Source: an uncultured Acidobacteriota bacterium (lineage in GTDB: Bacteria; Acidobacteriota; Blastocatellia; RBC074). Taken from it: a DNA stretch of 64,000 nt. Within the stretch, counting starts at the first letter, position 1, and the number at the start of each line of letters is the position of its first letter. The DNA lies in the NCBI GenBank assembly GCA_963743045.1, contig CAVUOF010000032.1, positions 69,611-133,610 of the forward strand, given 5' to 3'. Below are positions 4,482-43,330 of the stretch, piece after piece. The translations under genes and the position numbers were made by a program. A model generated the notes under the pieces. The model did no database searches. It was not told where the DNA came from and saw only the letters and a list, made by a program, of their open reading frames with translations.

Positions 4482-4518
4482 TCCAGGACTACAAGCACGG
4501 ACGACCGGCTTGTTGAAC

Positions 4519-5702: not shown

Positions 5703-6087
5703 ATGGGACACGAACGAAAGTCTCGACGAGTTTTGAAATGATGACGCAATCCACAATAGCAGCAACAGTCATGGCCTTCAAGTTTTTTGTTGGCAACGAC
5801 AATGACTGACGCAGCCGGCAGTTTCCTTGTCTTAGCGTTCCACAGTGTTCTCGAGCTGAATTCTCGAACTCATTGTTAAATGAGGGGTTTACAATTATGA
5901 GACTATGTCAGACACATCTGACAGCAAAAGGGTAAGCAATAATTTCATAGCCACCCTTCCATTTTCGCGTAAGAATTACTCAACCAGAGACGATCTCTAC
6001 GGAGTGCGGCTTAGCCGGTCATAGAGCCTAAGCCCGTTATTTACAGTAGTTATCGAATACCTTGTCTTTGGCACCGGGATTGCCATA

Positions 6088-19865: not shown

Positions 19866-19944
19866 CATGCGACCTCAGGGAACGAACGAAAGAATGACCT
19901 ATATGCTACAGCGCGGTCTTGAGGCCGCGTGGGAGGAGGAATCA

Positions 19945-22464
19945 ATGACAACCAAAATGCGTTTCGTTGTGGCGGTAGCTTGTCTGCTCGGAGCGCTATC
20001 ACTTACCTGTCTGGGACAGTCGCTCTCCGCCGGTACTGTGACAGGCACAGTCACAGACCCGACTGGCGCGGTCGTGACGACTGCGACAGTGATCATTCAG
20101 AACGCGGTTACTGGCTTCCGACGGTCGACGACCACCGATAACACCGGTTCATTCCGTTTCGGCGATGTACCGCCGAATAACTATCAACTGAGTGTCTCGG
20201 CGAACGGGTTCAACACGGTCACCCAGAATCTTACGGTGCGCACATCGGTGCCGATCACGGTCAATGTCTCGCTTGCGATCGGGGGTGTCACCAACACTGT
20301 GGAGATCGCGAGTTCCGAGAGTTTAGTCGAGAGCGTTCCAATGGCGCATACCGATGTAGACCAATCACTGATTGCCCGCCTGCCTGTCCGGTCTCCGGGA
20401 TCCGGGTTGAGCGATGTGGTGGCCTTTGCCGCGCCTGGCGTTGCGGCCGACTCCAATGGGCTCTTTCATCCGCTTGGTGATCATGCGCAGACATCGATCT
20501 CATCGACAATCAGCCGATCACAGATCAGATCGAGCAAGGCCTTCTCCACGCAGCTGCCTGTCAATGCGATCCAGTCGCTTGAGGTGACTACCGGCGCCGT
20601 GCCTGGCTGAGTACGGCGACAAGACCAGTCTGATCATCAATGCGATCACGCATTCGGGCATCGGGCAGAAGCATCCGACCGGCAGCCTGCTGACCAAGTA
20701 CGGCACGTTCGGAACTCGCATACCGAGGGCACATTCGGCTTCGGGGATGCGAAAGTAGGCAACTTCATAGCCTTCAACTTTGAGGACCGCGGCCGGTTTC
20801 TTGACGCGCCGGAGATATCAGTGTTTCACGATCGCGGCACCTCGTCGAGCATCTTCGACCGCCTCGACTACAGCGTCGGCTCGAACGATACCTTCCATCT
20901 CAACGTGCTGCTGGCGCGCAACCGTTTTGAGATACCGAACACCTACGAGCAGGAGGCCCTCGGACAGGACCAGGGCCAGCAGGTGCGATCGGTCAACATC
21001 GCGCCCGGCTACGTTCACATCTTCAGTCCAACGACAATACTGACGGTCAATCCTTACTTTCGCATGGACCAGGTCTGGTACTACCCGAGCGCGAATCCAT
21101 TCTCGGATCAGACCAGACGGTCAGCCAGCAGCGACGGCTACAGAACTCGGCATCCGCGCCGACATCGCCTACACGAACGGGAGTTCACAACGCCAAGGCG
21201 GGAGTGCAGTTCTCGCACACATTCCTGACTGAGGCGTTTCAGTTTGGGATCACCGATCCGAATTTCAACGATCCTACGAGCCCCAACTTCATTCCCGGCC
21301 TGCTGCCATTCGACCTGACGCGTGGCGGGAGCCTGTTTCACGTTCAACGGCCACACCGATATCAAGCAGGTGGCGGTCTATGCGCAGGATTCGATCACCA
21401 GGGGCAACTTCACAGCCAATCTGGGACTGCGCTTCGATAACTACGCGGGCACTCAGCAAGGGACCATTTGTGGCAGCCGCGCCTCGGGGCTCGTACCTCA
21501 TTTAAAACGAACCGGGACTGTGTTGCGCGGCTCCTATAGCCGAACGTTCGAGACGCCATATAACGAAAACCTGATTCTATCGAAGCGGCCGGGGCGCAGG
21601 GCTGGGCGACGGCATACTTGGCGGTGCGAGCATTGAGAGTCTCAAGCCGGGCCAGCGACATCAATTCAATGCCGGCTTTCAGCAATGGGTTGGCAGGCAC
21701 GTTATGATCGACGCTGACTACTTCTGGAAGCGGACGCGCAACGCATACGACTTCAACGTCCTGCTCAATACGCCGATTGCTTTTCCGATCTCGTGGAACA
21801 AGTCGAAACTCGACGGGTTGGCACTGCGGGTCAATCTTATCCGACTATAAAGGGTTCACCGCATTCTTCTCGGCAGGGCACACGCGGGCGCGGTACTTCC
21901 CGCCGGAGAATGGCGGCCTCTTCTTTAACTCCGATATACCGGCAGGCGTCTTCCGCATCGACCACGACCAGGCGTTCCAGCAGACGAGCCAGGTTCAGTA
22001 CCAGTTTCACCAGTTCGGCAAGCTCCAGCCGTATGCGGCATTCAGCTGGCGCTACGACAGCGGAGTGGTTGCCGGGCCAGTTCCCGACTACGCGACCGCC
22101 CTCGGCTTCTCGCCTGATCTGCAGGCGCAGATTGGTCTCTTCTGCGGGAACGTCTTCGCGACACCCACGCAAGGTTTACGATTCGTGCACGATCCAAATC
22201 GTGGGGCGACTCGCGATTAAGATTCCGGCCGACGGAACAGCGAACGACGATCACAATCCTCCGAGGATCGCGCCGCGGCATCTATTTGATTTCAGCATGG
22301 GCACGGACAATCTGCTTCGGACAGATCACACGCGCGTGACCTTGCGGTTTACGGCAATAAACCTCACGAACAAGGAGGCGCTGTACAATTTCCTCTCGAC
22401 GTTCAGCGGGACGCACTTTGTTACCCCACGTACGTTCGCTGGACAGATAGGGATTGTTTTCTGA
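19945..22464 (+). CDS. TonB-dependent receptor with carboxypeptidase-regulatory-like N-domain; at least 6 frameshifts (possible pseudogene)
   Basis: MTTKMRFVVAVACLLGALSLTCLGQSLSAGTVTGTVTDPTGAVV...FRFGDVPPNNYQLSVSANGF. Receptor-like pieces continue through ORFs 20821.., 21204.., 21322.., 21777.. and 21793..22464. It ends ...THFVTPRTFAGQIGIVF*. Confidence 0.7.
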
Positions 22465-22481
22465 CGAGCCGGGCGGCCATC

Positions 22482-23048
22482 TTAGTGGGCGGGCCTGGCG
22501 AGAACCTGACTCAGTATTAACTGTTTGAGCGCGTCAAGGGCATCATCGGAAAACCTGAATTCGGCGGTTCCCCATTTGCCTGAGAGACGTGTGGTGTCCA
22601 GCAGCTTTTGCAGGTCTTCCGAGCCGATGTAAGCTCGGACTGATTCTGCGATCTGGTGGTTCATCTCGAAAAACTCGCTGCGGTACTCTTTGGCGCGAAT
22701 CTCAAACTGAACTGAGCTTGTCAACAAGGAGATGACATCCGCATTTCTGAATAGAGGCTCAGTCGGTCGGGTTACGACATTTCGACACGATGAGAACTCG
22801 AGCCAGAATTTCGTATTCTCGATGGGCTGCCTTCCCGGAAAGGATAGGTTGGCTCGGATGAACAGCCTTCCCGTGGCGTTCAGTGAATGTACAAGATCGC
22901 ATTCTACAGTCGTCGTGTTGTTGAGCAGGTCGTACCTGGTCTGGATTCGACAAATGCCTGGGTGCTGATCGCCCCTCAAACTGACGGGCAAGCCGACCAG
23001 TAGAATTAGGGCCGCACCCAAGGATCGTCTCATAAGCCTCTTGTTCAT
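22482..23048 (-). CDS. Hypothetical exported protein
   Basis: 188-aa ORF with signal-like MNKRLMRRSLGAALILLVGLPVSL. No family recognised. Confidence 0.4.
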   Translation of the reverse strand: MNKRLMRRSLGAALILLVGLPVSLRGDQHPGICRIQTRYDLLNNTTTVECDLVHSLNATGRLFIRANLSFPGRQPIENTKFWLEFSSCRNVVTRPTEPLFRNADVISLLTSSVQFEIRAKEYRSEFFEMNHQIAESVRAYIGSEDLQKLLDTTRLSGKWGTAEFRFSDDALDALKQLILSQVLARPAH

Positions 23049-23390
23049 TCGCTAGCCTGACTATCGAGGAATGTAAGAATGCTCAAGAGGAGAGTAGGGC
23101 ACATGCGAAAACCTGTCGATCGGTTTTCAACGGATGGATGATGCAGGCACATCAGCAGACAGAATTGTCGCGTAGGCGACCAGATGAAGATGGCAGGTCG
23201 GCAAGGCTAACATGGGAGAGCAAGGGTAGGCGCTGGCTCGCGAGCCACCGTACGGATACCCACGGACGTGAATGGACAATTCGGCTGACGGCAATATGAA
23301 TAACGGCCTTGTGTTGGGAGATCGTCTAACGGAAGCTATTTGATTTGCCTGGCTCGTATAGTAGCCGCTCGGTCTTTCAGTCTCTTCGCT

Positions 23391-23585
23391 TCATCGGCTA
23401 CTTTCTTCGATGACGATAGCGCGGCGAATGAAGGGCTCGGCTTCTGAGAGCCGGTTTGTCGCCTTGAGCAACTGGGCCAGGTTGTTAAGAATCTCTCGCT
23501 ACACTGGGATGGTCCTGGCCTGAGCTCCGTTCGTCGATAGCCAGAGCGCGGCGCATCAGGGGCTCAGCTTCGGACGGCCGTTTCG
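23391..23585 (-). pseudogene. C-terminal fragment of a TPR_10/TPR_12-type repeat protein (frameshifted, 5'-truncated)
   Basis: The minus strand reads ...AEPLMRRALAIDERSSGQDHPSVARD / ILNNLAQLLKATNRLSEAEPFIRRAIVIEESSR*, the classic 42-aa TPR_12 unit. Only about 1.5 repeats remain. Confidence 0.45.
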
Positions 23586-23589
23586 TGCC

Positions 23590-24166
23590 GTGAGGCAGCT
23601 CGTGGAGGATTTCGCACGGTACCTCTACCTGCCGCGGCTGGCCGGTCCCGAGGTGCTGGTACAGGCCATCCGTGACGGCTTGGCGCTGCTCACGTGGCAG
23701 TCAGACACGTTCGCGTACGCGGAAAGCTACGACGAGGCCACAGAGCGGTATTTAGGATTGCGCACTGGTCAGCTTCTATCGCTTTCGCCTGACAGCTTGG
23801 GGATGTTGGTCAAGGAGGTGGCGCGGAGGCAGAAGGATGGCGAGACTCCGCCCCCTTCACCCGATCCCGCTCCCGGGCCCGGTCCGGGGCCCGGACCGGG
23901 GCCCGACCCGTCCCCCCATCCGGAGCGAAAACTGCGTCGCTTCCACGGCACGGTGAGCCTCGATCCCGCTCGCGTTGGCCGTGACGCGAGTCGCATTGCC
24001 GACGAGGTGATTGCGCATCTGGCCGGTCGGGCGGGCGCGGAGGTCACGGTCACCCTCGAAATCGAAGCCAGACTTCCCGGCGGGGCCTCCGATCATGACC
24101 GTCCGTACCGTGACGGAGAACAGCCGGACATTGAAGTTCACGAGCCACGGATTCGAAACTGATTAG
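23590..24166 (+). pseudogene. C-terminal ~190 aa of a DUF499-type ATPase (defence-island R-M-like system component), 5'-truncated with one late frameshift
   Basis: LVEDFARYLYLPRLAGPEVLVQAIRDG...FHGTVSLDPARVGRDASRIADEVIAHLAGRAGAEVTVTLEIEARLPGG. After a shift it reads TVRTVTENSRTLKFTSHGFETD*. This matches the C-terminus I recall for DUF499 proteins. No N-terminal ATPase part and no partner genes are present. Confidence 0.5.
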
Positions 24167-24318
24167 TCTTTTGCTTGCTCTTAGTGGGCGCTAGCAACCG
24201 CTAAGCTATTCAAGCCGAACAAGAGGTCCTTGAGACCAACGTCGGAGATTGGTCGTCTCTTTTACCTCAGAGTGAGCTCAGCAACATTTCGATTTGGCAC
24301 GGTCAGACCGTGAGTATC

Positions 24319-27300
24319 TCAAAACACGAGTTTCAGTCCGAACTGCAGCTGTCTCGATGATCCTCTCGTTGTGGTGATCAAGCCCGCACTGCCAACCGGA
24401 CCCGTGCTGGAGAAGACGGTTCGCTGGCTTGGAATTGAAAAGTTCGGGTGGTTCAGGAAGTTGAAAACCTCGGTACGAAACTGCAGAGTAACGCCCTCCC
24501 GCAACCGAAACGACTTGTCTACTGCAAGGTCGAGCGCGATCAGCCCGGGACCGATCAAGGTGTTTCGTCCAAGGTTGCCATAGAAGCCGGGAGCAGGAAG
24601 AGCAAATGCAGCCGGGCTATAGTACCTGCTCGGGTCGCCCAGGATAGGGTTGATGCTCTGCCCGGGCACCAGGTCGGGTCGCTAGGTGATGTTCCAGCCT
24701 GGAAACGGGCTCGCGCCTGGTCGAAGCCGACTACCACTGAGAAGGGGTTGCCTGAAGCCAGGCTTGAAATAGCGTTGAGCTGCCAGCCTGCCGACAGCCA
24801 CTCAGGTCCCAGAAGTTTGGGCACTTGCGCGGTGACGTAACTCACAAAGTAGTGGCGCAGGTCATAATTCGAAAGCCCCCGCTCTTGATTCCGATTGTCG
24901 GGGTCCTGCGGGAGATCGTTGTCGCCACCCTGCGTGGTGACGATCGATGCATCGTCAATAGCCCTCGCGTACGTGTAGCTCGTGTGGAGCATGAGGTACC
25001 GGCCCGAACGGAACTCAAATGTCGTTTGGAGACCATTATAAGAAGAGATTCCGTCCGTGACCTTGTTGCGAATGCCGCTGAAGTTGGGGTTGCGAACGGT
25101 TGAATTGATCGGGAAGAACTTTCGGCCATCAGGAAGGATCGTCGGAATTGCCTGGTTCTGGTCGATCAGTCGAACCTCATGAACCCCATGCTGTCCTACA
25201 TAGGCTACGGTCAGAATCCCCCCTCTCAGGATCTCTCGCTGGATGCTCAAGTTGTAATGCAACGAGTATGGGTTGCCTGGTGTGTATGCCAGTGTGTCCA
25301 GGCGGCCGAGAACGAAGTTGGGGTTCGTCGCGACTGAAGCGGCGTTGGGGAAGCTGGGATTGCGGACGCTGCCCAGAGTATAGAAAGGCGGTTCGCGATT
25401 GGCTGCGTTTGCGTAAAAGTCAGTCCACAGTGGGTCAAAGAAGATGCCAAAGGCGCTTCGCACGCTGGTCTTTCCGTCACCGAACGGGTCCCAGGAGATT
25501 CCCACCCGGGGTGCGAAGTTGAGGTTCGAAGGATTCTTATACAACTGGCCTACCGTCGGCTTTGTATCGTGCAGAGTGTCACGCAGGTTCGCCTCCAGCC
25601 CGTCTCTCTCAGACGGCAGGCTCGTCCGCTCGTAGCGCAGCCCGAGATTGATTGTCAGGCGCCGCGAAAAATGGAAGTCGTCCTGAATGTACGCAGCGGT
25701 CATCGACTGGCTCCAGTGGCGCACCAGCTCAGATCCGGGTAGCGTCAGCTCCATAGCGAACGGAGTCGCTCTGAGGAAGCTCGCCAGCGAATTGAACTGA
25801 TAAAAGCCGTATGGAGACTGCGGGCGGCTGGTCGGCAAGTATATGTTGCGCTGGTCAAATCCGACTTTGAGCGAGTGACGCCCCACAATCCACGAGAGAT
25901 CGTCTCCCAACTGGAAGAGGTTGAGCTCGGAAAAGTTCGGTCCGAAACGACTCGGGCCCATCGAGAACAGTCCCGTGATACTGATCTGGCCGAAGGGCCG
26001 ACCGGGAAAGAATGACAGTGAGGGGTCGATTGGTCGCAGCTCATCAAAGGACTGGCTGCTGGTCGAACGATTGTAGTTAAGACGGACGTTGTTGAGCAGG
26101 CGCTCGTTAAACGTGTGAGTCATCTGGAGCGTCATGTATTGATTTCGAGATTTGGTGCTCGTCTTGATCAGCTGGAGATTGTCGGGCACCTGGACACCCG
26201 CGCTGTCATAAGTGTAGCGACCGAAGATCGAAGTCTTGTCTGAAAAGCGATGATCGACTCGTCCGGCAAAGAAGTCCTCATTGTCAGCATTGGAGCCGGA
26301 TGACAAATACTGCCCCGTGCCGTCATTAAAGTCGCGCCCATTGGGGAGAGGAACCAGAGCAAGATAGGGAGGAATCGATGGGTCAACCGAGATATGAGGG
26401 AGCCCGGGGATGTCTCCGTTTCTTGCTGCCGCGTTGGGTACAACCGCCTGATTCGTAATACCGAGGCGCTGCCTCAGACCCTCATAGCTGGCCAGGAAAA
26501 AGGTCTGGTCATGATGGATGGGGCCATCGATCAGACCCCGAACTGGTTGCGCGAAAAGTGCGGAATCTTTTGGGCTGCCGGATCGAAGAAGTTCTTGGCG
26601 TCGACTGCGCTGTTGCGGAGAAACTCGAACGCCGAGCCGTGCCACTGGTTCGTACCAGACCGGGTGACGGCGCTGATCACACCTCCGGCACTGCGCCCGT
26701 ATTCGGCGCTGTAGCCGTTGGTCAAAACGCGGAACTCCTGCAGTGTGTCGACACCCAGCAGGACTCCCGAAACGCTTCCCGGAGTATTGTTGTTCGCGTC
26801 GTTGATGTCAGCCTGGTCCAGCACAAAACTGATCTGATTGGGACGCCTTCCGCCCACCGATAGCTGCCCGCCACTGCCTGCAGAGTCAGAGGTCCTGCGC
26901 GAAGGCACGACACCCGGCTTCAAGACAGCCAGCTGTACAATATCGCGTCCGTTGAGCGGCAGTTCGCGGATGGAGTCCTTGTCCATGACGCTGGAGAGGG
27001 CAGCGCTGTCAGTTTCGACCCGGCTGACACCGCTCGTGACAACGGTCTCCGATGTTACCGTTCCGACTCTCATGGTGAACTCAAGTCTCGCCCGCTGGCC
27101 GACGGTCAGTTCGACGTTCTCCCTCGTCTCCGTTTGAAAGCCGTCATGAGAGACTGTCACATTGTAGACACCCGTAGGAAGCTGAGTGAATACATAGAAA
27201 CCGACGCTGTTGGTGTGCGTCTCGCGTGAAGCGCCAGTCAGCGGTTGCCGGACCGTAATTTGCGCGTTAACGATGATTGCTCCTGTTCCGTCGCTCACGG

Positions 27301-27394
27301 TCCCTGAGAGCTCTGCTGTGTTCTGTTGAGCCTTCACCATGACGCTCATACAGAATATCGCCGCAAGGCAGAGTGGTCGCTTGGTTCTTCTCAC
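24319..27394 (-). CDS. TonB-dependent receptor (carboxypeptidase-regulatory-like + plug + barrel); two apparent frameshifts (~26600, ~24650)
   Basis: N-terminal part in ORF 26531..27394 (signal, TGAIIVNAQITVRQ..GFYVFTQLPTGVYNVTVSHDGF, plug LPLNGRDIVQLA). Barrel in 24555..26645. C-terminus in 24319..24669, ending RQLQFGLKLVF*. Confidence 0.8.
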
Positions 27395-27530
27395 CGCTTA
27401 TCTCCCTTCGAAAAGGCAGATACATCGCCAATGCTGTTTGCAGGCTGCACCGCACCCGGGCCGGAGGATGGGGCACGACGTCCCCGCGCCAGGACAGCCT
27501 TAGGCCCATCATCCGTTCCCTCGGTCCACG

Positions 27531-28769
27531 CTACAAAGAGATGGTCAGGACGCTCAAATAGGAGTGCGGGATAGGTTGCACTTCCCATCGCATGCCCAGC
27601 CGCTGCAAGGCGGAAAGGGTGCCCGCCTGGTCGATCTGACGAAAGTAGATGTCGAATCTGCTCCAACCTGGTTGAGCCGAGTCCTGGCGAGCCTGAAACA
27701 CCAGACCCACCGTGCCATCAAGGGTCATAAGTCGGGGGTGGTTGGCATCCAGAAGGCTGGTGTCCGCTTCAATCTTTGGCGAGAAGTGGGCGCCGTTGTC
27801 ACTTGACGATGCGACATAGATACGGGACCGGTCACCCGATACCGTGCGCCAGGACGCAAAGATACGACCCTTCAGTGTCGCGAGCGACGGACCTGAGTGC
27901 GGGCATCCGTCTATCTGCCAGTTGTCCTCGGCAACACGTGACGGGGCGCCGAAGGTCGTAGCGCCGTCGGTCGAAGTAGCCACGAATATGTCACGAATGT
28001 CGTTGCCGAGAATCCCGCGCCAGGCGATATGCACCGTCCTGCCGTCGCTGAAGGCTATCTCCGGTCGACAACACGGGCAGACATTCAGCGCCACGCGGAT
28101 GCTCTTCTCAAATGACTGACCGCGATCGGTCGATCTGGCGAGATAGAGTGCGGAGGATACCTGCTTCCCCTGGCCCCGGTCACGCCCGTCCAGCCAGGCT
28201 ACGTAGACGGCCCCATCCGGGCCCACCGCCATCGTGTAAAAGGACTGCGACGCCGTGCTGGCTGGATCAACTGGAATCGGCTTGCTGAATGATTTTCCCC
28301 AGTCCATCGAGCGTGCGAGGCGGAGTGCCGAGCGCTCAGGTCCCGATTCCGCCGTCCAGAGCACATAAAATTCGTGCATGCTGCGCACGGCCATGAGTGG
28401 CATGTTTTCAGGGTGCGATGCCACCGATCCACCTTCGTTGATGCGGACTCCCTGGTCGAAGCTGTCGCCGCCATCGGAAGAGGTCTGCAGCCACAAATCC
28501 TCATCCCTGACGCGCAGGAGGAAGAGGTCTCCGGAAGCGCGGACCCCGAGTTGGGGGTAACCTCCCTTGCCGGTGACGCGCCCCTGGGACTCAAAGGTGA
28601 ATTGAGCTCCGCCGCTGTTCGCTCCGCCAACAAGAGCGCCAACAAAAGCGGATGATCCCGGAGTACAAGCCAGGACGATCGTGACCAGCAGAATCAAGGC
28701 AGATAGGACCGCTGAGTCGGAAGTCAGTTTTCTTGAGAGCAACAGTGATGATGCTGAGCATTTCTTCAT
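27531..28769 (-). CDS. BNR/sialidase-like beta-propeller protein, probable lipoprotein, with conserved CxCC...CP cysteines
   Basis: 412 aa. N-terminus ...LILLVTIVLAC|TPG is lipobox-like. Repeated SxDxGxxF/W motifs (SSDGGDSF, SMDWGKSF, STDRGQSF, STDGATTF, SSDNGAHF). Cys cluster NVCPCCRPE and IDGCPHSG. Confidence 0.6.
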   Translation of the reverse strand: MKKCSASSLLLSRKLTSDSAVLSALILLVTIVLACTPGSSAFVGALVGGANSGGAQFTFESQGRVTGKGGYPQLGVRASGDLFLLRVRDEDLWLQTSSDGGDSFDQGVRINEGGSVASHPENMPLMAVRSMHEFYVLWTAESGPERSALRLARSMDWGKSFSKPIPVDPASTASQSFYTMAVGPDGAVYVAWLDGRDRGQGKQVSSALYLARSTDRGQSFEKSIRVALNVCPCCRPEIAFSDGRTVHIAWRGILGNDIRDIFVATSTDGATTFGAPSRVAEDNWQIDGCPHSGPSLATLKGRIFASWRTVSGDRSRIYVASSSDNGAHFSPKIEADTSLLDANHPRLMTLDGTVGLVFQARQDSAQPGWSRFDIYFRQIDQAGTLSALQRLGMRWEVQPIPHSYLSVLTISL

Positions 28770-29016
28770 GACTTTGTGACCTTGTGTTCTTAACCAGTTG
28801 CTCGCGAGACATTCGAAACGTTGATCGCGGGCGTCGGCCGGTCATGCGACCTGTCCGCGGCGCTACGTTAGCTACATTGCCCCATAGACTTCGCTATCAG
28901 ACCTGTGACGTCCGGAGTCCCGAGATGTGGCTGCAAGGATTGGCCCCGCCACAAACTCCTCGCGCGCACGTGCACCGCGTCTACGGCACGCCTACGAACC
29001 GAGGTATAGAGTGATG

Positions 29017-29463
29017 TCAACTTTTTTGATCAAGTCGATTCAGGCGCGGAGGCCCGCGTGGAGAAGAGGACTCCTGGATCGGAGTCTTGTGCAGGAGGAT
29101 AGGCTGTGATTGTGTCTCGTCCCTGTTGGATAAGTCGCGTTCGTCAAATGGTGAGCGATACCCATTGCGAGCCAGCGTCTGCACGGACGCGCCCGACAAC
29201 GCTCGCTCACCTGGGCATGGCCTGGAGATTTCCGGCGTGCCGACCTGAGTATTCCTGTCCTCAAGTTGTCCCTGGACGAATGCGTGGTGTGGCAGGCAGC
29301 AACAATGGCCCGCGGTGATGCAGCATGATACCGAGCAAACATCCGAGTCGTAGACGGCGAGGGAGAGAGGAGTTGCGAGCCAGCCTGACAGGAAGAGAGC
29401 GGCCGCACAAACGGCACGCCACGATGCTTTGTTCGGGAGGCTGGGTAGCACAGGTGACCACAT
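29017..29463 (-). CDS. Exported Cys/His-cluster protein, paralog 2 (C-x3-CC-x4-HCCC-x-P-HH)
   Basis: From the ATG at 29463: MWSPVLPSLPNKASWRAVCAAALFLSGWLATPLSLA|VYDSDVCSVSCCITAGHCCCLPHHAFVQG...SRPCPG...SSPRGPP.... It is a paralog of 36946..37347 with identical motif spacing. Confidence 0.55.
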   Translation of the reverse strand: MWSPVLPSLPNKASWRAVCAAALFLSGWLATPLSLAVYDSDVCSVSCCITAGHCCCLPHHAFVQGQLEDRNTQVGTPEISRPCPGERALSGASVQTLARNGYRSPFDERDLSNRDETQSQPILLHKTPIQESSSPRGPPRLNRLDQKS

Positions 29464-29689
29464 TATCGACCTGCCGCTAGTGATATGTAAAGTTGTTTTA
29501 CGCCGAAAGTAGCGAGCGCATTCCGAGCCGGCGGGTCGTGGTGATTCCATGATTGAGTTGAGAGATGAGCAGGAGTCAAGAGTGAATTAGGTAGACCTGA
29601 AAAGCACGAAGCTGTTGTAGGAACAACACTCTGAGGTCTTGTCGAGATTCTTGCTGCCTGGCGCGAGCGGCCGAAGGACGGGTCCAGAT

Positions 29690-29974
29690 CGCCGCTGTGT
29701 CTCTTGCGATGTTGGCTATTTTCGTCAGCCGCTGATAAGCGCAAGTCAACCACTCAAGCGCTATAACAAGCAATTGGTTAAATACTAGTAGTCACCTATT
29801 GCCGCAGCACTTAGATTGCCCACGCTAATCGGCACCTTAATATCGGGGTAGATCGAATCGAGAGCCGAGAGGTATGGGCACCGCACTGCTTGTCTTGATT
29901 GCTGACTATGAACGGCCCGCGCGGTCGTTTCTGGCAGCGATGCTGCGCAGCTTCGAAGATGTTGAGCTGATTGC
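29690..29974. repeat. Duplicated segment, copy B (pairs with 18900-19183)
   Basis: Same conserved blocks as copy A. Similarity ends inside the regulator's receiver domain. Confidence 0.75.
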
Positions 29975-30005
29975 AAGCTTGACGCGGCAAGTGGGTTCAA
30001 TATGA
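29874..30005 (+). pseudogene. Truncated LytTR response-regulator remnant (43 codons)
   Basis: MGTALLVLIADYERPARSFLAAMLRSFEDVELIASLTRQVGSI* against the intact MSTALRVLIADDERPARSFLAALLRRFEDVVLIGEA.... The acidic-pocket DD is changed to DY, and the ORF stops after the homology break. Confidence 0.7.
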
Positions 30006-30138
30006 CAAGACGGGCGCGTATTTTTAGTGGGCCGGCCGCGGTGACGGATGACAGAAAGGCAGGTAGCGCACTTCGAGATCATCCCCTCGAGGGGCTACTC
30101 GCGTGGAAACGCGGTATAAGTTTCTATGCAGCTTCGAT

Positions 30139-31426
30139 CTAAGCCTGAAAACCCTTACAGAGACGACAGGATGGAGTAGCACCACGCGCTACTGGAGCGA
30201 GCGCCCGTTGAGCAGGCGTCGGATGAAATGAGCGGCTCAGAAAGACCGAGACCACACCCGGATCATTCGGTCCCGATACCTGTGAAACATTGGTCACGGC
30301 CAGGTCTGGAACGCCATCACGATCGAAGTCCCCCGCACCTATCGTGTAGGCGCCACCCCGCGTCATGAGATTGATCCCATCCTTGAATGTTCCGTCGCCC
30401 TTGCCGAGGAGGACCGTGATTCCCTTTGCCGTGCTCTGACCAATCGAGTCGGTGCTCAGGTTGGCGACTGCGATGTCGAGATTGCCATCAAGATCGAAGT
30501 CCGCCACTGCCAGCCACAAGGGGTCTCTGCCTACGGCAGGTTGTGCGGTACGAGCAAAAGCGCCGGCGCCATTTCCAAGGAATACGCTGACGGTCGCGTT
30601 GACCGAGTCCGCGCTGATCAGATCAAGATTGCCGTCGTGATTGATGTCTACGGAGAGCAGGTAATGGGGCCCGGCACCACTTGTCAGGGTAGTTCCCTCT
30701 CGAAACGTCCCGTCGCCATTTCCTAACTTGATGGCAATTGCACTGTCGTCGAGTACGGCAATCGCGAGGTCTGCTTTGCCGTCGCCATTGAAGTCTCCGA
30801 TTGCCAGCCGCATGGGGACGGTGGCCCGCGTCGAAGCGCGTTCCGTTAGCAGCCGAAGCGTCGAAGAACGTGCCATCGCCGCGGCCGATGAAGATCGAGA
30901 CTAAATTGCGCTCGTCTTCTGCGACCGCCAGGTCCATCTTACCGTCGTTATTCAGATCACCAACGGCGACGTGATGCGGCTGGAGTGAATTGAAATCGTG
31001 TCCGGCGAAGAATGTGCCATCGCCGCGCCCGAGGAGAATGGAGCAGGTTCCAACACCATAGTTGGTGACTACGAGATCGAGGTTTCCGTCACCGTTGAAA
31101 TCGCCTGCAGCAATAGAACTTGGGTAGTCGTCTGCCTGCTGCTTGCCAATGGGGTAAGTGCGGGCCCTCGAGAAGACGCCGTTGCCGCCACCAAGCCGGA
31201 CTACGAGCGAGGGAACGTATGTACTGCCGCTCGGCTGGTAAAAGTTGGTCTGCACGAGATCAGGTATCTTGTCGTGATCGAGATCGACGACAAGCAATCC
31301 GTAGGGCGTATAGACCCGGTCATTGAGCTGAGTACGCAGATAGTCGATGCCTTGTTCTGAATGTATCGCGGGATTCAGCGCGACCGCCAGACCCACGAGG
31401 GTGAGGAGTATGTAAAGCTTTCTCAC
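30139..31426 (-). CDS. FG-GAP/VCBS repeat exported protein, copy B (frameshifts near 30850 and 30215)
   Basis: Nearly identical to copy A (the first 26 residues are identical). Split between ORFs 30623..31426 and 30139..30876. A 1-nt difference near the 3' end extends the reading frame past the stop used in copy A. Confidence 0.7.
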
Positions 31427-31569
31427 GGTTTATCGCTCCAGGCAGTCACTGTTCAAGTCAGCGGACCGGTAGGGAGGTTCCCGCGAGAGGCGACCACCGG
31501 TTGTTGGCCTTGCGCAGACGGTGCCAGAACATGCGGCGGCAAGAGGACCTGTTCGGGACGAAGGCCGCC
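30188..31569. repeat. Segmental duplication, copy B (pairs with 11838-13218)
   Basis: See copy A. Confidence 0.8.
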
Positions 31570-31771
31570 GTCACTATTCTCTTTCCCGCTGAGCATGGGA
31601 CCGCCTCGTGCAGGAAGTCGGCTCAAAGATTGGTTCGCTGCCGGGCCCCGAATGGTATCCGAGTAATGCGCAAGTATTTTGAGAAGGGCAAAAGCCCTTC
31701 GTCTGTGATGCAGGTGGATCGCCGCCTCGATATTCATTCCTGGCCCGGCTGTCGGATCGTGGCCACTTGCG

Positions 31772-33998
31772 CTAGTAGTGGAACCGGTAGGTGACAGCTG
31801 CATAAATCTGTCTCGGGTCGGCATAGTGAGTGCCATTGAAGGTCTCACTGTTGTCCAACAGGAACCGCCGGTTGGCTACATTCAGCATGTGAACGGCAAT
31901 TGAGAGTTTTTCGCCCATAGCCTTTCCCAACGCCAGGTCGAAGGTCGTGTGCCCCGGAAGATGTTGGGGCGCATTGTCTCCATCGACGAAGCCCGACCCA
32001 TAGTAGACGTTGGTAGCTGCAAATGCGCTCCAGGGGAGACGGATATCCCCTCCCACGTTGAGCGTGTTGCGCTGATCATGGTCGAGGAGGAAGTAGTCGC
32101 TCGGCGGAGAGAAGTCGGTCAAGCCACCAGTCACGGCTCCCTGTCCTTCCAGTTTCAACCAGGCATAGGCCGCGTGCACTTGAGCTCGCTGAAACAGCCT
32201 TGGCGAATTGACAGTCACCTCCCACCCTCTGGCCCTGCCTCGCTCAATGGTCACCGGAAAGAAGATGTTCGAGTCGCCGAGCGCATTGTGATCGAAGAGA
32301 TTCTTCGTGCCGGTATGAAAGTAGTCTCCGTCGAGCGTCCAGCCACGAACGGGGAGTGTCAATCCGACCTGATACTCTTCGTTGCGTTCGCCGTGCAGCG
32401 GCAGAAAGGCGAAGCCCTCGTCGAGCGCGAAATCGATCACCGGGCCTTGAACGGTAGACAACGGCGGAGCCTGATAATAACGGCCATAGAATCCTCTCAG
32501 CACCAGACCTGCGCGAGGCAGACGAACCGCGACGCCCGCGCGAGGACTTCCAATGGTCTCGCTCACTCCTCCGTCGAAATGGGTCAATCGCGCGCCCAGA
32601 GTGAGAGTCAGCCAGCCGGTCGGCTTCATCTGATCCTCGAGAAAGAAGGCCTCCAGGTTCCCTGACGGCTTCTCCCTTTGGAGCAGGCTTCCTCCAGTCC
32701 CGTCGTTCGCCTGGAGACCGAAAGAGGCGGTGTCGCTCTGATAGAACGCGTAAACGCCAGCTTTTGCGCTGTGACGATTTGCTCAGCCAGCTGAGCGTCA
32801 CCTGGCCTCCGGCATAGTTCGAAAGGCGTTTCTCCTGCGGGATTATCGGGTTGTCATCGGGACCGCCAAGGAATGACGCATTGTTGAAATGCAGGAATGG
32901 AGAGACAGTCAGCAGCAGGCGCGGTGTGAGAGTTCGGACCCAGGAGAGGTTGATATACCCGTCACTCTCAATCTCGACGTCTCTGATACCGGCCGCTTGT
33001 GTCTCTGGATCGTTGGGCACCTGGTAGAAGTCGCGACGTGCTGAGGCCACCAGACGCAGTTGATCGACGGGAGTCGCGTTGAATGCCAACGAAACGAATG
33101 CCCCGATGCCGTTTCCCAAATCATGGATGACATCCGGTCCCGGGGTCGCCAATCCATAGTCGCTCCGGTTGCCGTTGAGGCTCACAAAATAGGCGAACCG
33201 CTGAGTGTGACTGGCAAAACTGACCTGGTCATTGGTCTGGTTGAAGCTGCCGTAGCTCAGCCTCAGCTCACCTTCCTGATTGCGCTCAAATCCCGACCTC
33301 GGCACGACGTTGAAGACGGCATAAGTGCGGTCGCCGTAGGCTGCCGAATAACTTCCCCGCTGCACTTCGAGGTAATCAATATCTTTCGGATCCACTTGTG
33401 GCGCCACATTGCTGGCGATATTGGTGTTCGGCACCGGAACACCGTCGATCAGCCAGCTGACCTGGTGCCCGCCGCGAACATGCAGGAGATCGTGTGTGAC
33501 ATAGGCTCCCGGAACGTAGTTGGTAATCATCGCCAGGCTGTTGCTGCGATCCGCGCCGGGCGTCCGCGCAATCCTCTCTCGTCCGATAAGAGTCGTAGGC
33601 GTTGGTGAATCCGAACCAATGAGCTCGGGCGCCTCCACGACATCGACTCCTTGCGTAACCGGAGCAATATGCATTGCAAATTCAAGGATTGGGGCATTGT
33701 CCGTGAGAACCGTCACCGGCTGCTCAATCCTGGCGAACCCGCCCGCCTCAACCGTCAGAACATACTCGCCGACGGGAACCGAACGAAAAATGAACTCGCC
33801 GTGATCATCCGTCACAACGGAAAGAACCAGTTGCGAGGTGCGCGATTGGAGGGTCACTTGAGCACCCTTTATTGCCTGCTGCTGAGGATCACGCACCAGA
33901 CCACGCACGTCGCCGAGTACAGCGGCATTCAGGTTTGAAATCATCGCGAGCAGAATGACGGCTGGCAGGATGACAAATAGCAACACCTTTCGACGCAT
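31772..33998 (-). CDS. TonB-dependent receptor (carboxypeptidase-regulatory-like N-domain); at least one frameshift (~32650-32760)
   Basis: Signal MRRKVLLFVILPAVILLAMISNLNA. GLVRDPQQQAIKGAQVTLQS..GEFIFRSVPVGEYVLTVEAGGF, then plug RTPGADRSNSLAMITNYVPG..VRGGHQVSWLIDGVP. The C-terminal ORF 31772..32629 ends YAAVTYRFHY*. Confidence 0.75.
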
Positions 33999-34028
33999 GA
34001 TACCTCCCTTCGTCGAAGCGGCTTGACC

Positions 34029-36816
34029 TCAGAATGTGAGTCGCAATCCGAATTGAATCTGCCTGGGATCTGCCGCCCCTGTGGGCGTCCCGAACGCCGG
34101 CGGCGGAATTGTCCCTGTTCCAAAGGTTGCGTTCGGGAGCTGCAGGTTGGCGCGATTGAGCAGGTTGAAGCCCTCGGCCAGCACATCGAGGCCGAATCTC
34201 TCGGTGAACCTGAAATGGCGGCTGAGTCTCATATCGAAAGAAGCAAAATCAAACCCGACGCCTGTGTTTCGGCCAACTCCGACAGGCCGGTCATTGACCG
34301 CCGTATCATTGTTACGATCGTTGCCAGTTACGATGTTGAAGGGCAAGGACGAGCCATAACTGAAGATGTAGCTCAACTGGAATCCTGACACGGCTCGCCG
34401 CCAGAATGGCTCACCGGCAGCCGCCGTTGGGCTCGACAGCGAACCGCTGATTACAAGTCGATGCCGCTGATCGTTATCCGACAGGCCCCGGTCATCGCGT
34501 AGATTGGAGTTATCCTGCGGGCCGGAAAAGAAGGCGCTTCCCGTATTATCGATCGCCTTCGAGAACGTATAGGAGAGTCTTAAGCCGGCCCAGCTCTTGA
34601 ACCTGCGATTGAGTGAGACAGTCAACCCGTTGTAGTAGGCGTCGCCTGAGCCTTCGTAGCGGCTGATGTTGGCGAAGAGAGGATCGGGACGGCCAAGATT
34701 GGCGATGCCTTTCTGCGTTGCCTCCGCCGCCGAGACGGTTGGAACATTGACGTTGCGCGAAAGAATGACGTGCAGACTCCGCACGTAGACGTACCCGACC
34801 GAGAGCGACGTCGACGAGGCAATCTCGCGCTCCACCTGGAGGCTCGCCCGCAGCGCGTTGGAATTCTCTATGTCAGGATCGATGCGCGTAATGCTGGCCA
34901 GCAACCCGGTCGGAAACGCCGGCAAAACGCTCGGGAAGATGGGTGTACCGGGCTGTCCGAACGGGATCACCGCGACCAGGTATTTCGTGCCGTCACGCTG
35001 CAGAGCATTCGATGTGGCGCGCAGGGGAATGCGATCGTAATAGGTACCATAGCTCGCACGAATGACCGTCTTGTGGTCGCCCGGCGACCAGGCGATGCCG
35101 AGACGGGGAGATATATTGTTGGTGTCTGTTTTGATCGGATCCGGCAGAAACTGCAGGTCGTAACGCAGCCCCAGATTGATCGTGAAATTCTTCAGCCGCC
35201 ATTCGTCCTGAACAAAGAACCCGACGTTTGGATTCGACTGAAACTGGCCTGGTGCTCCGAACGCCTGCTGGAAAGTTACGTACTGGCCGCGAATGAAATT
35301 GGCAAGGTTGGAGAATGTATAGACGCCCTGGAGCGCCCCGGGAAACTCGATGTCGACGCGGTTGAGCAGAAAATCGAGCCCGAATTTCAACGAGTGGGCC
35401 CCTCGACGAAGTGTCATGCTATCGACCGCCTGAATCGAGTCGATATTGCGCTCAGTGGGAGACGACGTCGCTGTGCCCATATTGGCCACACCCGATATCG
35501 AGATGGCCGGGCCGATGAGATCGTTCGGCGGAGCTCCCAGACGGCTGCGCGTGTACTGGAACCGAGCCTCGTTCATCAGTCGCGGAGAGAGAGTGGCGAC
35601 CTCGCTCAGGACTATCGATTGATCGCGACTGTCGAGTGCCGTTCCTCGGCTCACAGCATTGATTCCGCCAACGTTGCGCGCATTGAGGCTCGAAATGTCG
35701 TAGTAGCTGTAACGAGCCGAAAGCAGGTTTGCCGGGTTTATCCGATGGTCCACTCGAACAAAGACGTTGGATGTGTTGTAACCGGCCGGCGCGAGTCCGG
35801 TCTCAACTCTCGATGCGGAGTATTTGACCTGGTTGAGAATGTCATTGATGGCCAGCACGCTGGCCGGCGTTATCGTCAGGACAACTGCGTTATGAAGCCG
35901 CGTCTGCTCGAAGTTGGCAAAGATGAACGTCCGATCCCTGACTATCGGGCCTCCCCCCGTGGCTCCGTATTGCGCTTGCGTCAACGGGTCCTTCGTCCTG
36001 GCCAGAGGATTTCGCGCGTCAAAACGCTGGTTGCGCAGGAAGCCGTACAACCGGCCATGCCAGTCATTGGTTCCTGACTGCGTGACTGACATTGATGATT
36101 CCCGCAGATGCTCGCCCGTACTCGGCGATACCACCGGAAGTGATGACCTGAAACTCACGAATCACGTCCTGGCTGAAGAAGGTCGCCGGAAGATCGGCAG
36201 CATCGTCGTTGGAGGAGAGCCCATCCAGCAGAAATCCGTTGTTGATATTCCTCTGGCCGGTAACCGAGATCGCCGTGCCTGGGACTGCGGAAGTCTCGGC
36301 AAAGCGCTGGTTACTTACAGGATTTGCTCTCGTCACTCCCGGCGTCAGCGCCGCAAGGTCGAGATAATTGCGCCCGTTCAGCGGAAGCGAATCGACCTCC
36401 TTCGGGAGTATGGTCTCGGATACCTGGGTACGCGCGGTCTCTATGATCGGCGCATCCGAATGAACCTCGATTTGTTCACTGACGACGACACCCAGCTTAA
36501 TAGGAACGTCGAGCGTCTGGCCGACAGTGAGAGACAATGCGAGAACAAAGGTGGCAAATCCATCTCGTTCAGCTTTGAGTTGATAGCGTCCGACAGGCAG
36601 ATATGTAAAGCGATATCTGCCCTGGGCATCACTCGTCGTTTGCCATGTTTCGTTCTGATCAACCCTCGTCACGGTGACCGTAGCGCGGGCCACCATGGCG
36701 CCCTGCATGTCTTCGATAGTGCCGCTGAGCGTAGCCGAGGTAACGCTCTGTTGTGCTCTGGCCGTCGCAGCAGTCAAAAGGAGAAGGACTGCGAGCATGG
36801 CCAACCTGCGTCTCAT
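34029..36816 (-). CDS. TonB-dependent receptor (carboxypeptidase-regulatory-like N-domain); one frameshift (~36070-36150)
   Basis: N-terminal ORF 36064..36816 (MRRRLAMLAVLLLLTAATARAQ, GTIEDMQGAMVARATVTVT..GRYRFTYLPVGRYQLKAERDGF, LPLNGRNYLDLAAL). A 709-aa barrel ORF follows, ending ADPRQIQFGLRLTF*. Confidence 0.8.
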
Positions 36817-36945
36817 ACTCCTCCGAACTTCCTCTTTGCGTCCCCTGGGACCGCAGAGAAGTGGAGATCAGCTGAATGAGCGCTGCATGAACTGTCGCTG
36901 CACGAGCGGATTCAACTCGAGCAACCTGACAGTGTCAGCGCAAGA

Positions 36946-37347
36946 TTAGCTTTGACGGAGAGTATGGGCCGGAGGTGCTCGCGGCGATGCGATTTCGAAG
37001 CGGTCTGCCTCGTGAACTCGCCTTACCTGAGCGTGCGGGATCGCAGGCGGAGCCATCGCTTCGAATTGGTGCGAATGGTCGCCAGCGGCAGTACCAGTGA
37101 AGTTTGAGGACGAAACACCTGCAGTCGAGCAACTGCCGGGGCATGGGCGATTGAGCTCCGGATTGCGAATCTCGTCTCTGCCCGATGGGATTTCGCCCTT
37201 GACGTAAGCATGATGTGGAGAGCAACAGCAATGGCCGACGGCCACGCAGCACTCCATGGTACAGACATCAGCCTCGTAGGTTGCGAAGGCGAGAGGCGCA
37301 GACAGCCAGCCAAGCAGCAGTGCAAGTAGTGCGCTTGCAGCGCGCAA
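36946..37347 (-). CDS. Exported Cys/His-cluster protein, paralog 1 (C-x3-CC-x4-HCCC-x-P-HH), first gene of the receptor operon
   Basis: A TTG start at 37347 gives (M)RAASALLALLLGWLSAPLAFA|TYEADVCTMECCVAVGHCCCSPHHAYVKG...NRPCPG...ASPRAPP.... It lies 129 bp upstream of the receptor gene on the same strand. Confidence 0.55.
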   Translation of the reverse strand: MRAASALLALLLGWLSAPLAFATYEADVCTMECCVAVGHCCCSPHHAYVKGEIPSGRDEIRNPELNRPCPGSCSTAGVSSSNFTGTAAGDHSHQFEAMAPPAIPHAQVRRVHEADRFEIASPRAPPAHTLRQS

Positions 37348-42124: not shown

Positions 42125-43330
42125 CTAGTAGATAATCGTGAAGCCGTTGGTGTCGTCGCTGACCACCGCCGCGAGACCAAATACCGGAACTCCAGGAGCT
42201 GAACCGCGCTCACCTACGGGCTTGCCGAGCTCATCAAAGACCTGCCAGGCGAGCGAGCCTCCTTTACGGAATGCAGTTCCTTCGGTCCACACGAGGATTG
42301 TCTGGCCATGACTGTCTAAAGCCAGCACCGGATGTTTGCGCTCGCCGTTGCCACCGGCGGGTGCGATAGGGCCCGTCAAAAACTTGCCCTTCGCGTCGAG
42401 CTCTGCATAGTAGACCTGGCCCTTTGTCTCCCAGGCTGCGAGCAGGCCCTTAGTTCCCTGCGCCATAGAAGTTGTGCTCATCGGGCACGTGTCGAGGTCC
42501 CATCTATCCAGCCGCTGACCGCTGAACTTCTGACCATGATCGGTTGAGCTGAGGAGAAACATGTCCCGGTGAGTATTCTCTGTAGCAGCACGATAGATGA
42601 AACGCACCTCGCCATCCTTCTCGACGAAGCCACGCATCCCGCAGCAACCGCATGCTCCGGTATCGTCATCCAGTGCCGGTACCTCGCGCTCAAACGTCTT
42701 GCCCTCATCATTCGAGCGAGCCAGCCAGACGCGCCGATGCAGCTCGCCCTCGGATGAGCCACTTCCATGCCACGCAACGAAGACGCGACCCTGGCTGTCC
42801 GCCGCTACGGTGCCGCCGCCGTCGAGCCCTGCCGCAAACTGCATGACGTTGCGTTCGGCTTCGAAGGCAGTGCGGCCGTCATTGAGCCGCGCGTAGAGCA
42901 TCGGTGCTGCATCCTTCGGTCCCTTCGGAGTGGCCGTGTTTGACCCCATCCATGCAACATGCACCCGGCCCGAAGGGCTTATGGCAATTTGAGGACCACG
43001 GATTGTGCCTGATGCGATCGCGCTCCCAGCCTGGCTGTTGACGCGCAGCGCAGGTGAAAACTCACGCTCTCCCGGCGCGAGTCGCACATAGGAGATGTTG
43101 CTCGCCGCAGGCTCACCGCTCAAATAGATGACATGCACCAACCCGTGCGAGTCCTTGATCGCCTGCGGCTGAATTCCGCCATTTGGTACCCGGAGGAGGT
43201 TGACCCTCGGAGCAGGCACCTTCCCGGCCGTCTGTGAGTCTCGGGTCGCGTGTACCGACCAAAGCGAGACCGCTACCACCGTCATCAGCAGAACTGCAAT
43301 CGTCAATCGCCTTAACATAATCAATCTCAC
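42125..43330 (-). CDS. BNR/sialidase-like beta-propeller protein with CxCC...CP cysteines (paralog of 27531..28769)
   Basis: 401 aa with an N-terminal TM/signal. Contains RSNDEGKTFE, SSTDHGQKF, GACGCCGMRG and LDTCPMST. The cysteines sit at the same relative positions as in the 27.5-kb paralog. Confidence 0.6.
   Translation of the reverse strand: MRLIMLRRLTIAVLLMTVVAVSLWSVHATRDSQTAGKVPAPRVNLLRVPNGGIQPQAIKDSHGLVHVIYLSGEPAASNISYVRLAPGEREFSPALRVNSQAGSAIASGTIRGPQIAISPSGRVHVAWMGSNTATPKGPKDAAPMLYARLNDGRTAFEAERNVMQFAAGLDGGGTVAADSQGRVFVAWHGSGSSEGELHRRVWLARSNDEGKTFEREVPALDDDTGACGCCGMRGFVEKDGEVRFIYRAATENTHRDMFLLSSTDHGQKFSGQRLDRWDLDTCPMSTTSMAQGTKGLLAAWETKGQVYYAELDAKGKFLTGPIAPAGGNGERKHPVLALDSHGQTILVWTEGTAFRKGGSLAWQVFDELGKPVGERGSAPGVPVFGLAAVVSDDTNGFTIIY

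Follow-up and report, generated by a model that had tools for sequence, protein, structure and literature searches.

A conserved cassette of a putative metal-sensing arrest-peptide leader, a four-cysteine beta-propeller and a TonB-dependent receptor in Acidobacteriota and Nitrospinota

We analysed a minus-strand gene cluster at positions 24,319–29,463 of a 64,000-nucleotide stretch of contig CAVUOF010000032.1, from an uncultured Acidobacteriota bacterium (the whole stretch is referred to below as the window). An earlier, sequence-only reading had described the cluster as a small Cys/His-rich leader, a BNR-like beta-propeller with clustered cysteines and a TonB-dependent receptor, and had proposed that the three families form a dedicated unit. 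We find that this three-gene cassette is real and is conserved in soil Acidobacteriota and marine Nitrospinota. We further think it probable that the first gene is an upstream open reading frame (uORF) encoding a metal-sensing arrest peptide, copper being the probable metal, and that it controls the TonB-dependent importer together with an undescribed propeller. How bacteria acquire copper across their outer membrane is little understood and, to our knowledge, the cruR-crtA-crpH operon of Proteobacteria is the only characterized importer operon controlled by a uORF. Acidobacteriota and Nitrospinota abound in soil or ocean and are difficult to study. If our reading is correct, regulation by a nascent, exported peptide whose metal ligands keep a constant distance to an arrest motif reaches both phyla, through leader sequences that escape current domain models. 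Feature positions are collected in Table 1.

A genome scan with the single propeller protein as query returned no relatives; a profile scan with an alignment as query, taking one genome per species, recovered 80 propeller loci, the neighbours of which were typed by tblastn and open reading frame (ORF) scans. A TonB-dependent receptor was directly adjacent to the propeller, on the same strand, in 67 of the 74 assessable loci from other genomes (upstream of it in 44, downstream in 23), and in 55 of 65 such loci the first gene was a small ORF, exported and rich in Cys/His, with an xPP tail at its C-terminus. The ∼1.3 Mb of flanking sequence contained only about a dozen further receptor genes. The three families therefore co-occur far beyond chance in both phyla, as anticipated for a dedicated, co-transcribed unit. 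Terminators that might separate the genes were also scanned for: terminator-like sites in the unit, including those between its genes, were at the level of the shuffled background, and promoter-like sites numbered 4, compared with 2.0 ± 1.4 in shuffles.

Within the close clade, whose propellers are 47–69% identical, an orthologous receptor (55–80% identity) was found immediately downstream in 24 of 24 loci, all of them from Blastocatellia, Bryobacterales or Terriglobia except for the 1.1-kb contig L024, which bears the label Chloroflexota. Distant acidobacterial propellers had the receptor immediately upstream, and in Nitrospinota loci receptors of other (siderophore or haem-like) subfamilies occupied the same position. 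Independent gene calls agreed on the gene order and had the propeller overlap the receptor.

As sequenced, only the leader of this cassette (leader 2; its paralog, leader 1, heads a second receptor) is intact. The receptor had been taken as one gene; its region is in fact spread over three frames (26531–27394, 24555–26645 and 24319–24669), the pieces of which match OMP_b-brl_4 profile positions 1–45, 47–723 and 745–838 respectively. The propeller ORF is present as previously described, with its NVCPCC and GCPH motifs, but its C-terminus is cut by a frameshift, placed near 27596 by alignment with homologues. Homologous propellers run on past the end of the window ORF as GHAxGSATYP...LFVAWTE...ARGR, and the window counterpart of this conserved C-terminus, GHAMGSATYP...LFVAWTEG...ARGRR, lies in a different frame that ends at a TGA (27391–27393). 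All three breaks are 1-nt homopolymer deletions: GGGGG to GGGG at ∼26545 and CC to C at ∼24690 in the receptor, and CC to C at ∼27596 in the propeller. Once the propeller is repaired, its TGA overlaps the GTG start of the receptor (27392–27394), and the 136-nt gap reported between the two genes is therefore an artefact. Because of this GTGA stop/start overlap, which resembles the arrangement in intact orthologues, we take the propeller and receptor to be translationally coupled; their orthologues overlap or abut in L001, L003, L004, L081 and L082, and receptor orthologues are intact, at 1025–1050 amino acids (aa), in L001, L003, L004 and L082.

The breaks are most likely assembly (consensus) errors rather than biology, because many other window genes, as well as the receptor of the related contig L081, are split in a similar fashion. 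A decaying pseudogene cluster, with three real frameshifts and a cassette that is non-functional in this genome, would account for the interruption of two of the three genes, and for the loss from leader 2 of one Cys of its CxxxC motif. We consider this unlikely, since the breaks are all single-base homopolymer deletions with no other damage, the 68–78% identity to intact orthologues holds across them, and long-read consensus error typically leaves the kind of pattern seen between 19.8 and 46.5 kb, where many unrelated genes are split alike. The genes so divided between frames are large, and include receptors at 19867–22464, 31772–33998 and 34029–36816, an FG-GAP protein at 30139–31426, and genes at 38612–40065, 43327–44911 and 44912–46448. 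The assembly looks indel-prone, as expected from long reads, which suggests that gene boundaries in the window are unreliable before repair; such assemblies can mimic gaps and gene boundaries, as happened here.

The remaining structural claims of the sequence-only reading fared unevenly. The leader ORF with its Cys/His cluster, the length of the gap that follows it and the common minus strand of all three genes were borne out, and the name 'leader' is fitting. That no plus-strand gene intervenes holds in so far as nothing supports the plus-strand ORFs there as genes, although mechanical calling does yield such ORFs, one of which (28784–29014, 76 aa) fills the leader–propeller spacer. The duplicated divergent regulatory segment said to lie upstream of the leader did not survive: a repeat search and blastn of both leader regions showed no duplicated segment upstream of the two leaders, the regions being alike only over 57 nt (75%) inside the coding Cys motif, and the upstream neighbour of leader 2, the FG-GAP gene, is co-directional and not divergent.

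In leader 2 a hydrophobic stretch, WRAVCAAALFLSGWLATPLSLA, directly precedes the Cys7/His3 cluster. An alternative start, ATG 29550, would give a protein of 177 aa, and the public record uses this longer form. A sigma70-like sequence (TTTACA-18-GATAAT, 29462–29491, minus strand) overlaps the leader ATG at 29463; we do not rely on it but, if it is real, the leader starts further downstream or the transcript is leaderless or another one. A search with leader 2 as a single sequence matched only the query itself, and its relatives were instead found by genomic position and motif, in a scan of the loci for Cys-dense small ORFs. A hydrophobic N-terminus was present in 76 relatives as well, as judged by a hydrophobicity scan. 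The Cys motifs differ between clades. Window-clade leaders, from Blastocatellia and relatives, carry DVCxMECCxAxGHCCC, kept in L001–L004 and in leader 1, with a RAPP or RGPP tail; many Bryobacterales leaders carry MxCCRRxxxHxCCKK and the tail QRPPP; others carry LPACCRRNGKHHC and the tail QKRGPP; and the His-rich Nitrospinota leaders have LHCLL...CPH...DCGG with a DPPP or DHPP tail. Common to all clades are the hydrophobic N-terminus, Cys/His ligands and (R/D/H)xPP placed 1–11 residues before the stop codon, the tail that the family uses being R[A/G/P]PP at the same distance. The tail motif was found in only 86 of the 10,431 ORFs (≥ 60 aa) in the loci, and 63 of the 86 also had at least four Cys; nearly all of the latter were at cassette heads.

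The leaders share little else besides a fixed spacing. In alignment A3 of 44 leaders, with a mean column identity of 19%, one Cys and two Pro are the only invariant columns. The invariant Cys is 51–56 residues before the first Pro of the PP pair in 38 of 38 acidobacterial leaders (55 residues in leader 2, counted from Cys83), and the local C-x3-4-C motif has its last Cys 49–51 residues before the Arg of the tail. A hand count in one Nitrospinota leader, L052, put the Cys of DCGG 54 residues before PP. Most relatives have C-x3-4-C at the place homologous to the CPGSC of leader 1. Such low identity between motifs, combined with a fixed Cys-to-PP distance, fits a ruler acting on the nascent chain rather than a folded domain.

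Two described systems work in a manner that we believe the leaders share. CruR of Bordetella pertussis, encoded by the first gene of cruR-bfrG-bp2921, has a CXXC motif and a C-terminal RAPP at fixed spacing (C93 and P141, 48 residues apart); a 162-nt spacer separates it from the gene for a TonB-dependent transporter, copper represses expression, RAPP is needed for expression and CXXC for repression by copper (PMC9426467). Arrest by CruR has been demonstrated in vitro; of the arrest motifs, RAPP and RGPP were identified as the most robust, and small secretory uORFs with these tails have been reported as enriched upstream of TonB- and copper-related genes in Gram-negative phyla (PMC12992588). 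The transporter, BfrG/CrtA, imports chelated copper; a PepSY_TM protein follows it in > 75% of loci and cruR precedes it in > 40% (PMC12914433). The second system, CutF, combines a Sec signal, CxxxC and a PPP tail, and links copper in the periplasm to translation of the gene behind it (PMC9973294; 10.1101/2025.02.05.636593).

The cassettes resemble the CruR-CrtA(BfrG)-CrpH(Bp2921) operon in having a small exported first gene ahead of a TonB-dependent transporter, with a Cys motif, a RAPP-type tail and fixed spacing between them, in the long spacer (247 nt behind leader 2 and 129 nt behind leader 1, compared with 162 nt) and in comprising three genes. They differ in that the window leaders fall below the threshold of PF11162, are richer in Cys (CxxxCCxxxxHCCC plus CxxxC, as opposed to the single CXXC of CruR) and space the Cys 51–56 rather than 48 residues from the first Pro. 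The third part is also different, a CPCC propeller between leader and receptor instead of a PepSY_TM membrane protein, and the window receptor is of another subfamily (CarboxypepD_reg plus OMP_b-brl_4). CutF of the Rhodobacter capsulatus cutFOG operon, which senses periplasmic copper through its nascent chain, is comparable in its export signal and Pro-rich tail; its CxxxC has a counterpart in leader 1 and in most relatives, whereas leader 2 keeps the first Cys alone. The Bryobacterales and Nitrospinota leaders, with QRPPP and DPPP tails and short spacers, resemble it. CutF induces a detoxifying multicopper oxidase in response to copper, whereas the genes downstream here encode an importer and a propeller, and regulation in the opposite sense is therefore expected; nor is a stem–loop masking the Shine–Dalgarno sequence evident in the window spacer. 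The ApdA, ApdP, ApcA and SecM class likewise comprises small secretory uORFs with C-terminal RAPP or RGPP (PMC12992588), but its characterized members monitor protein export and have no conserved Cys/His ligands.

Our claim is one of mechanism, namely that the leader works like CruR and CutF, and not of common ancestry. The family matched by most leader relatives was DUF2946 (PF11162, gathering score 23.7 bits): six of the 44 gave sub-threshold, full-length matches (best E 0.0026), and the L076 leader scored 17.8 bits, again below threshold, over profile positions 6–117 of 117. Homology to DUF2946 is nevertheless unproven, because the window leaders do not match it and none of 117 relatives from a profile search carries PF11162. 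The sequence-only reading had known of no described system with this composition. Published CruR and CutF systems already pair a uORF with a downstream gene, in the case of CruR a TonB-dependent transporter; the propeller partner is new, as is the multi-Cys form of the leader, which is divergent and invisible to current profiles. The papers searched mention neither a propeller nor BNR, and sialidase and Acidobacteria are likewise absent where they were searched for.

Instead of a regulatory peptide, the small Cys-rich protein could be a metal chaperone or buffer, periplasmic or anchored in the inner membrane, passing metal among receptor, propeller and an inner-membrane transporter. In favour of this, the protein carries an export signal together with numerous Cys/His ligands, the small ORF is always beside transport genes, and leader 2 has 9–11 residues after RGPP, more than most relatives. 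A chaperone would not be expected to keep its Cys-to-PP distance fixed within 5 residues at so low an identity between motifs, or to end in RxPP, a sequence that is strongly avoided and arrest-prone (PMC12992588). Moreover, CruR is undetected in proteomes (PMC9426467) and CutF is rapidly degraded (PMC9973294). We therefore give the chaperone only a small chance of being right. A ribosomally made, Cys-rich metallophore precursor, which the propeller would modify and the receptor re-import once loaded with metal, would also place a Cys-dense peptide beside an importer and an enzyme-like fold. This seems to us highly improbable: genes for a maturase, protease or exporter are absent from the neighbourhoods inspected, an export signal and not a recognition leader forms the N-terminus, the Cys motifs differ radically between clades, and what is conserved is the C-terminal RxPP with its fixed spacing and not a core peptide.

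In the arrest-peptide reading that we prefer, the leader would be a CruR/CutF-type regulatory uORF and not a structural protein, and its product would be exported co-translationally. Its thiol and imidazole ligands may bind metal, and RGPP would stall the ribosome. At such a stall Cys83 would be ∼55 residues from the peptidyl-transferase centre, and hence just beyond the exit tunnel, with the Cys7/His3 cluster ∼80–95 residues out. Metal loading of the ligands would then set the length of the stall, and stall length would decide whether the propeller and receptor are expressed. By analogy with CruR, stalling at low metal would permit expression, and metal binding would end the stall and shut the importer off; we favour this logic, in which metal turns expression off, because the downstream genes encode an importer. 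The receptor would use TonB energy to import metal across the outer membrane, most likely copper, either free or chelated. The propeller, presumably periplasmic, membrane-anchored or lipidated, and translationally coupled to the receptor, may accept, reduce or release the imported metal at its site of three Cys plus Cys-Pro-His/Asp/Glu, and would thus fill the slot taken by the PepSY_TM protein in proteobacterial cruR-crtA operons.

The propeller belongs to a large family with little annotation. Its own BNR_2 match is weak (33.2 bits compared with a cut-off of 31.4), alignment A1 shows four Asp-box-like SxDxGxxF/W-like repeats, Pfam otherwise offers only weak BNR families, and no NCBIfam model matches. 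A word-indexed search found > 1,200 relatives, nearly all of them unnamed or called 'sialidase family protein', and an exhaustive profile search 1,688 clusters at E ≤ 1e-30. For one homologue a Tli3 match (28.2 bits, cut-off 27) had no stretch passing alone, and a Zn_ribbon match to a homologue was sub-threshold; both were disregarded. What sets the family apart is a four-Cys site. Cys motifs were counted in the top 150 profile matches, which include 95 single-domain and 32 multi-domain BNR proteins. C-x-C-C was present in 89 of the 95 single-domain representatives, and all 89 carriers had a fourth Cys 40–80 residues later in the context (G/A)-C-P-(H/D/E); the 32 multi-domain BNR giants are without the CxCC motif. 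C-x-C-C, C-P and a His are invariant in alignments A1 and A2, the motif is kept in Nitrospinota (ICPCCRP, NGCAHSGP and DANHP), and it is kept also in the window paralog that is only 24% identical.

An AlphaFold model of the orthologue P0005, built from a 72-sequence alignment (pLDDT 86.5, pTM 0.81), has a long N-terminal helix followed by a beta-propeller. Its top Foldseek matches are sialidases (E 1e-10 to 1e-12), at TM-scores of 0.4–0.58 and 10–17% identity, and a sequence-profile search of the PDB with the propeller gave marginal sialidase matches only. Taken with the Asp-box-like repeats and with the N-terminal CarboxypepD_reg domain of the acidobacterial receptor, which is typical of SusC-like transporters, this weak likeness in sequence and fold could point to uptake of a glycan-type nutrient by a sialidase-like hydrolase and a SusC-like receptor, the small ORF being incidental. 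We regard this as very unlikely. The identities and TM-scores are low, the Cys4 site that defines the subfamily is not found in the multi-domain BNR relatives, Nitrospinota pair the same propeller and uORF with siderophore or haem-like receptors, and neither SusD nor any other glycan gene is adjacent in the neighbourhoods inspected.

We assign the propeller to the handling of imported metal because it remains constant, together with the ligand-rich uORF, while the receptor subfamily varies. The ligand-type residue that follows Cys-Pro also favours a metal site over mere disulfides. A role in substrate capture or redox chemistry, put forward in the sequence-only reading, is a plausible hypothesis. 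The lipoprotein call made there is not shared by the closest orthologues: the near-lipobox V-L-A-C (Cys35) of the window propeller has no Cys counterpart in the closest orthologues (P0003, P0005, P0007 and others), although Nitrospinota homologues have lipobox-like SC or SSC sequences. Beta-propellers serve as ligand-capture partners of TonB-dependent transporters in Bacteroides, where BtuG acts for B12 and XusB/DUF4374 for enterobactin. The family described here has no known sequence relationship to these, which lack a Cys cluster and are lipoproteins on the surface of Bacteroidota. CopG (DUF411) is an exported protein with C-x-C-C that is linked to copper handling; its fold is small and thioredoxin-like and not a propeller, and the likeness is confined to the motif.

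The receptor gives little indication of its ligand. Summed over its three pieces, it matches Plug (1.9e-05), OMP_b-brl_4 (2.3e-121) and TonB_dep_Rec_b-barrel (6e-07). Among 17 orthologues of the window receptor no Cys is conserved, and the few conserved His and one Met are not informative. Copper is our best guess because of the CruR and CutF precedents, the thiol-rich ligands, and the coupling of the distant propeller paralog to a His/Met-rich protein (see below).

Several observations weigh against a copper-responsive arrest peptide acting on this cassette. Neither Pfam nor NCBIfam gives a match to the window leaders, not even PF11162 at E 0.1; none of the 117 profile-search relatives carries any precomputed Pfam domain. 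Leader 2 itself has no second Cys in its CxxxC motif (RPCPGER), though it does have the extra cluster CSVSCCITAGHCCCLPHH, and two of the three cassette genes are broken as sequenced. The spacer folds no better than shuffled sequence (z −0.15), with no hairpin visible that would mask the Shine–Dalgarno sequence, and has no C-over-G bias, a crude indicator of Rho sites, so that no Rho site is visible either. Neither an Rfam family nor a tRNA was detected anywhere in the window, the spacer included. The spacer is poorly conserved in an alignment with five relatives and, because spacers range from 14 to 658 nt across the loci, the mechanism may differ between clades. Spacer lengths suggest that Rho-dependent control of the CruR type and unmasking of a ribosome-binding site of the CutF type may both occur. 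As to the metal, the receptors, in a search that did not compare them directly with CrtA, match no copper-receptor model (OprC/NosA, TIGR01778) and give only weak matches to generic NCBIfam models of TonB-dependent receptors, and no PCuAC, Sco, CopC, multicopper oxidase or PepSY_TM gene was found in the neighbourhoods inspected. Zn, Cd or another thiophilic metal could just as well be the target of Cys-rich sensors, and the four propeller Cys could simply form disulfides or a structural Zn site.

A more far-reaching joint reading, which we put forward tentatively as possible rather than probable, is that the CPCCRP...(G/A)CP(H/D/E) propeller is an unrecognized periplasmic metal acceptor or reductase, with a new Cys3+Cys/His cluster on a sialidase-like scaffold, and an obligate partner of TonB-dependent import, and that the multi-Cys RGPP/RAPP/RPPP/DPPP leaders are deeply branching nascent-chain sensors, invisible to Pfam, with a ruler of ∼53 residues. 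It would apply to copper or another thiophilic metal in Acidobacteriota and Nitrospinota, with the propeller replacing the PepSY_TM protein. Should the arrest-peptide reading that we prefer hold, the new propeller family with its invariant four-Cys site, which is tied to TonB-dependent import and numbers no fewer than about 90 clusters (50% identity) in the top matches, would be a candidate for the missing periplasmic hand-over step of metal.

Table 1. Positions in the window of the cassette, its motifs and its paralogs.
Feature	Position	Strand	Basis or remark
Leader 2, small exported Cys/His-rich uORF, 148 aa	29017..29463	-	ORF call
Leader 2 Cys7/His3 cluster CSVSCCITAGHCCCLPHH, aa 43-60	29284..29337	-	after hydrophobic export segment
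Leader 2 RPCPG, aa 81-85, with Cys83	29209..29223	-	invariant Cys column of alignment A3
Leader 2 RGPP, aa 136-139, putative ribosome-arrest motif	29047..29058	-	9 residues before stop
Leader 2-propeller spacer, 247 nt, candidate attenuation/anti-termination site	28770..29016	-	
CPCC beta-propeller gene (ORF as sequenced 27531-28769, 412 aa)	27391..28769	-	after repair
Propeller NVCPCC, aa 229-234, invariant C-x-C-C	28068..28085	-	alignments A1 and A2
Propeller GCPH, aa 288-291, fourth invariant Cys then His	27897..27908	-	alignments A1 and A2
TonB-dependent receptor, CarboxypepD_reg + Plug + OMP_b-brl_4 barrel	24319..27394	-	three frames, two deletions
GTGA shared by propeller stop (TGA) and receptor start (GTG)	27391..27394	-	repaired propeller
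Leader paralog 1, CTMECCVAVGHCCCSPHH + CPGSC + RAPP 7 aa before stop	36946..37347	-	heads second receptor
Second TonB-dependent receptor (TBDR-B), two frames	34029..36816	-	129 nt downstream of leader paralog 1
Distant propeller paralog, 24% identity, C-x-C-C (GACGCCG), C-P-M, K-H-P	42125..43330	-	

Some loci depart from the usual arrangement. In several Terriglobales loci two tandem RGPP-type uORFs (LPACCRRNG[KAV]HHC ... QKRGPP) are found ahead of the receptor–propeller pair, at 6047–6960 in L042, 5970–6924 in L044, 5960–6890 in L046 and 5995–6896 in L060. L076 has a second RGPP-type uORF at 4509–4889, ∼1.5 kb upstream of that at 6440–6865. In the Nitrospinae locus L075 (9098–14766) a uORF and a propeller are followed by a TonB-like gene, ExbB and two ExbD genes, with no receptor there, an arrangement that further ties the propeller to TonB-energized transport.

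Other parts of the window hold related genes. The distant propeller paralog, with GACGCCG, DTCPMS and KHP, starts at a GTG that overlaps the stop of the upstream gene at 43327–44911 (minus strand, two frames). The product of that gene has a His/Met-rich N-terminus, HEGMDHSDGSADHSGHMTMGGHQMMM, reminiscent of copper-binding tracts, and no Pfam or PDB relative. Beyond the 3′ end of the cassette receptor, a plus-strand ORF (23590–24162) with no Pfam match encodes a Pro/Gly dipeptide tract, PDPAPGPGPGPGPGPDPSPHP. At least four genes for TonB-dependent receptors of the CarboxypepD_reg type are present within ∼17 kb (19867–36816). In the second cassette (34029–37347, minus strand) leader 1 is followed by TBDR-B with no adjacent propeller; TBDR-B orthologues (46–50% identity) are followed by a CPCC propeller in L042, L044, L046, L058, L060, L074 and L076. 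Both cassettes are part of a co-directional minus-strand block at 24.3–37.3 kb that contains three receptors, two leaders, the FG-GAP protein and the propeller.

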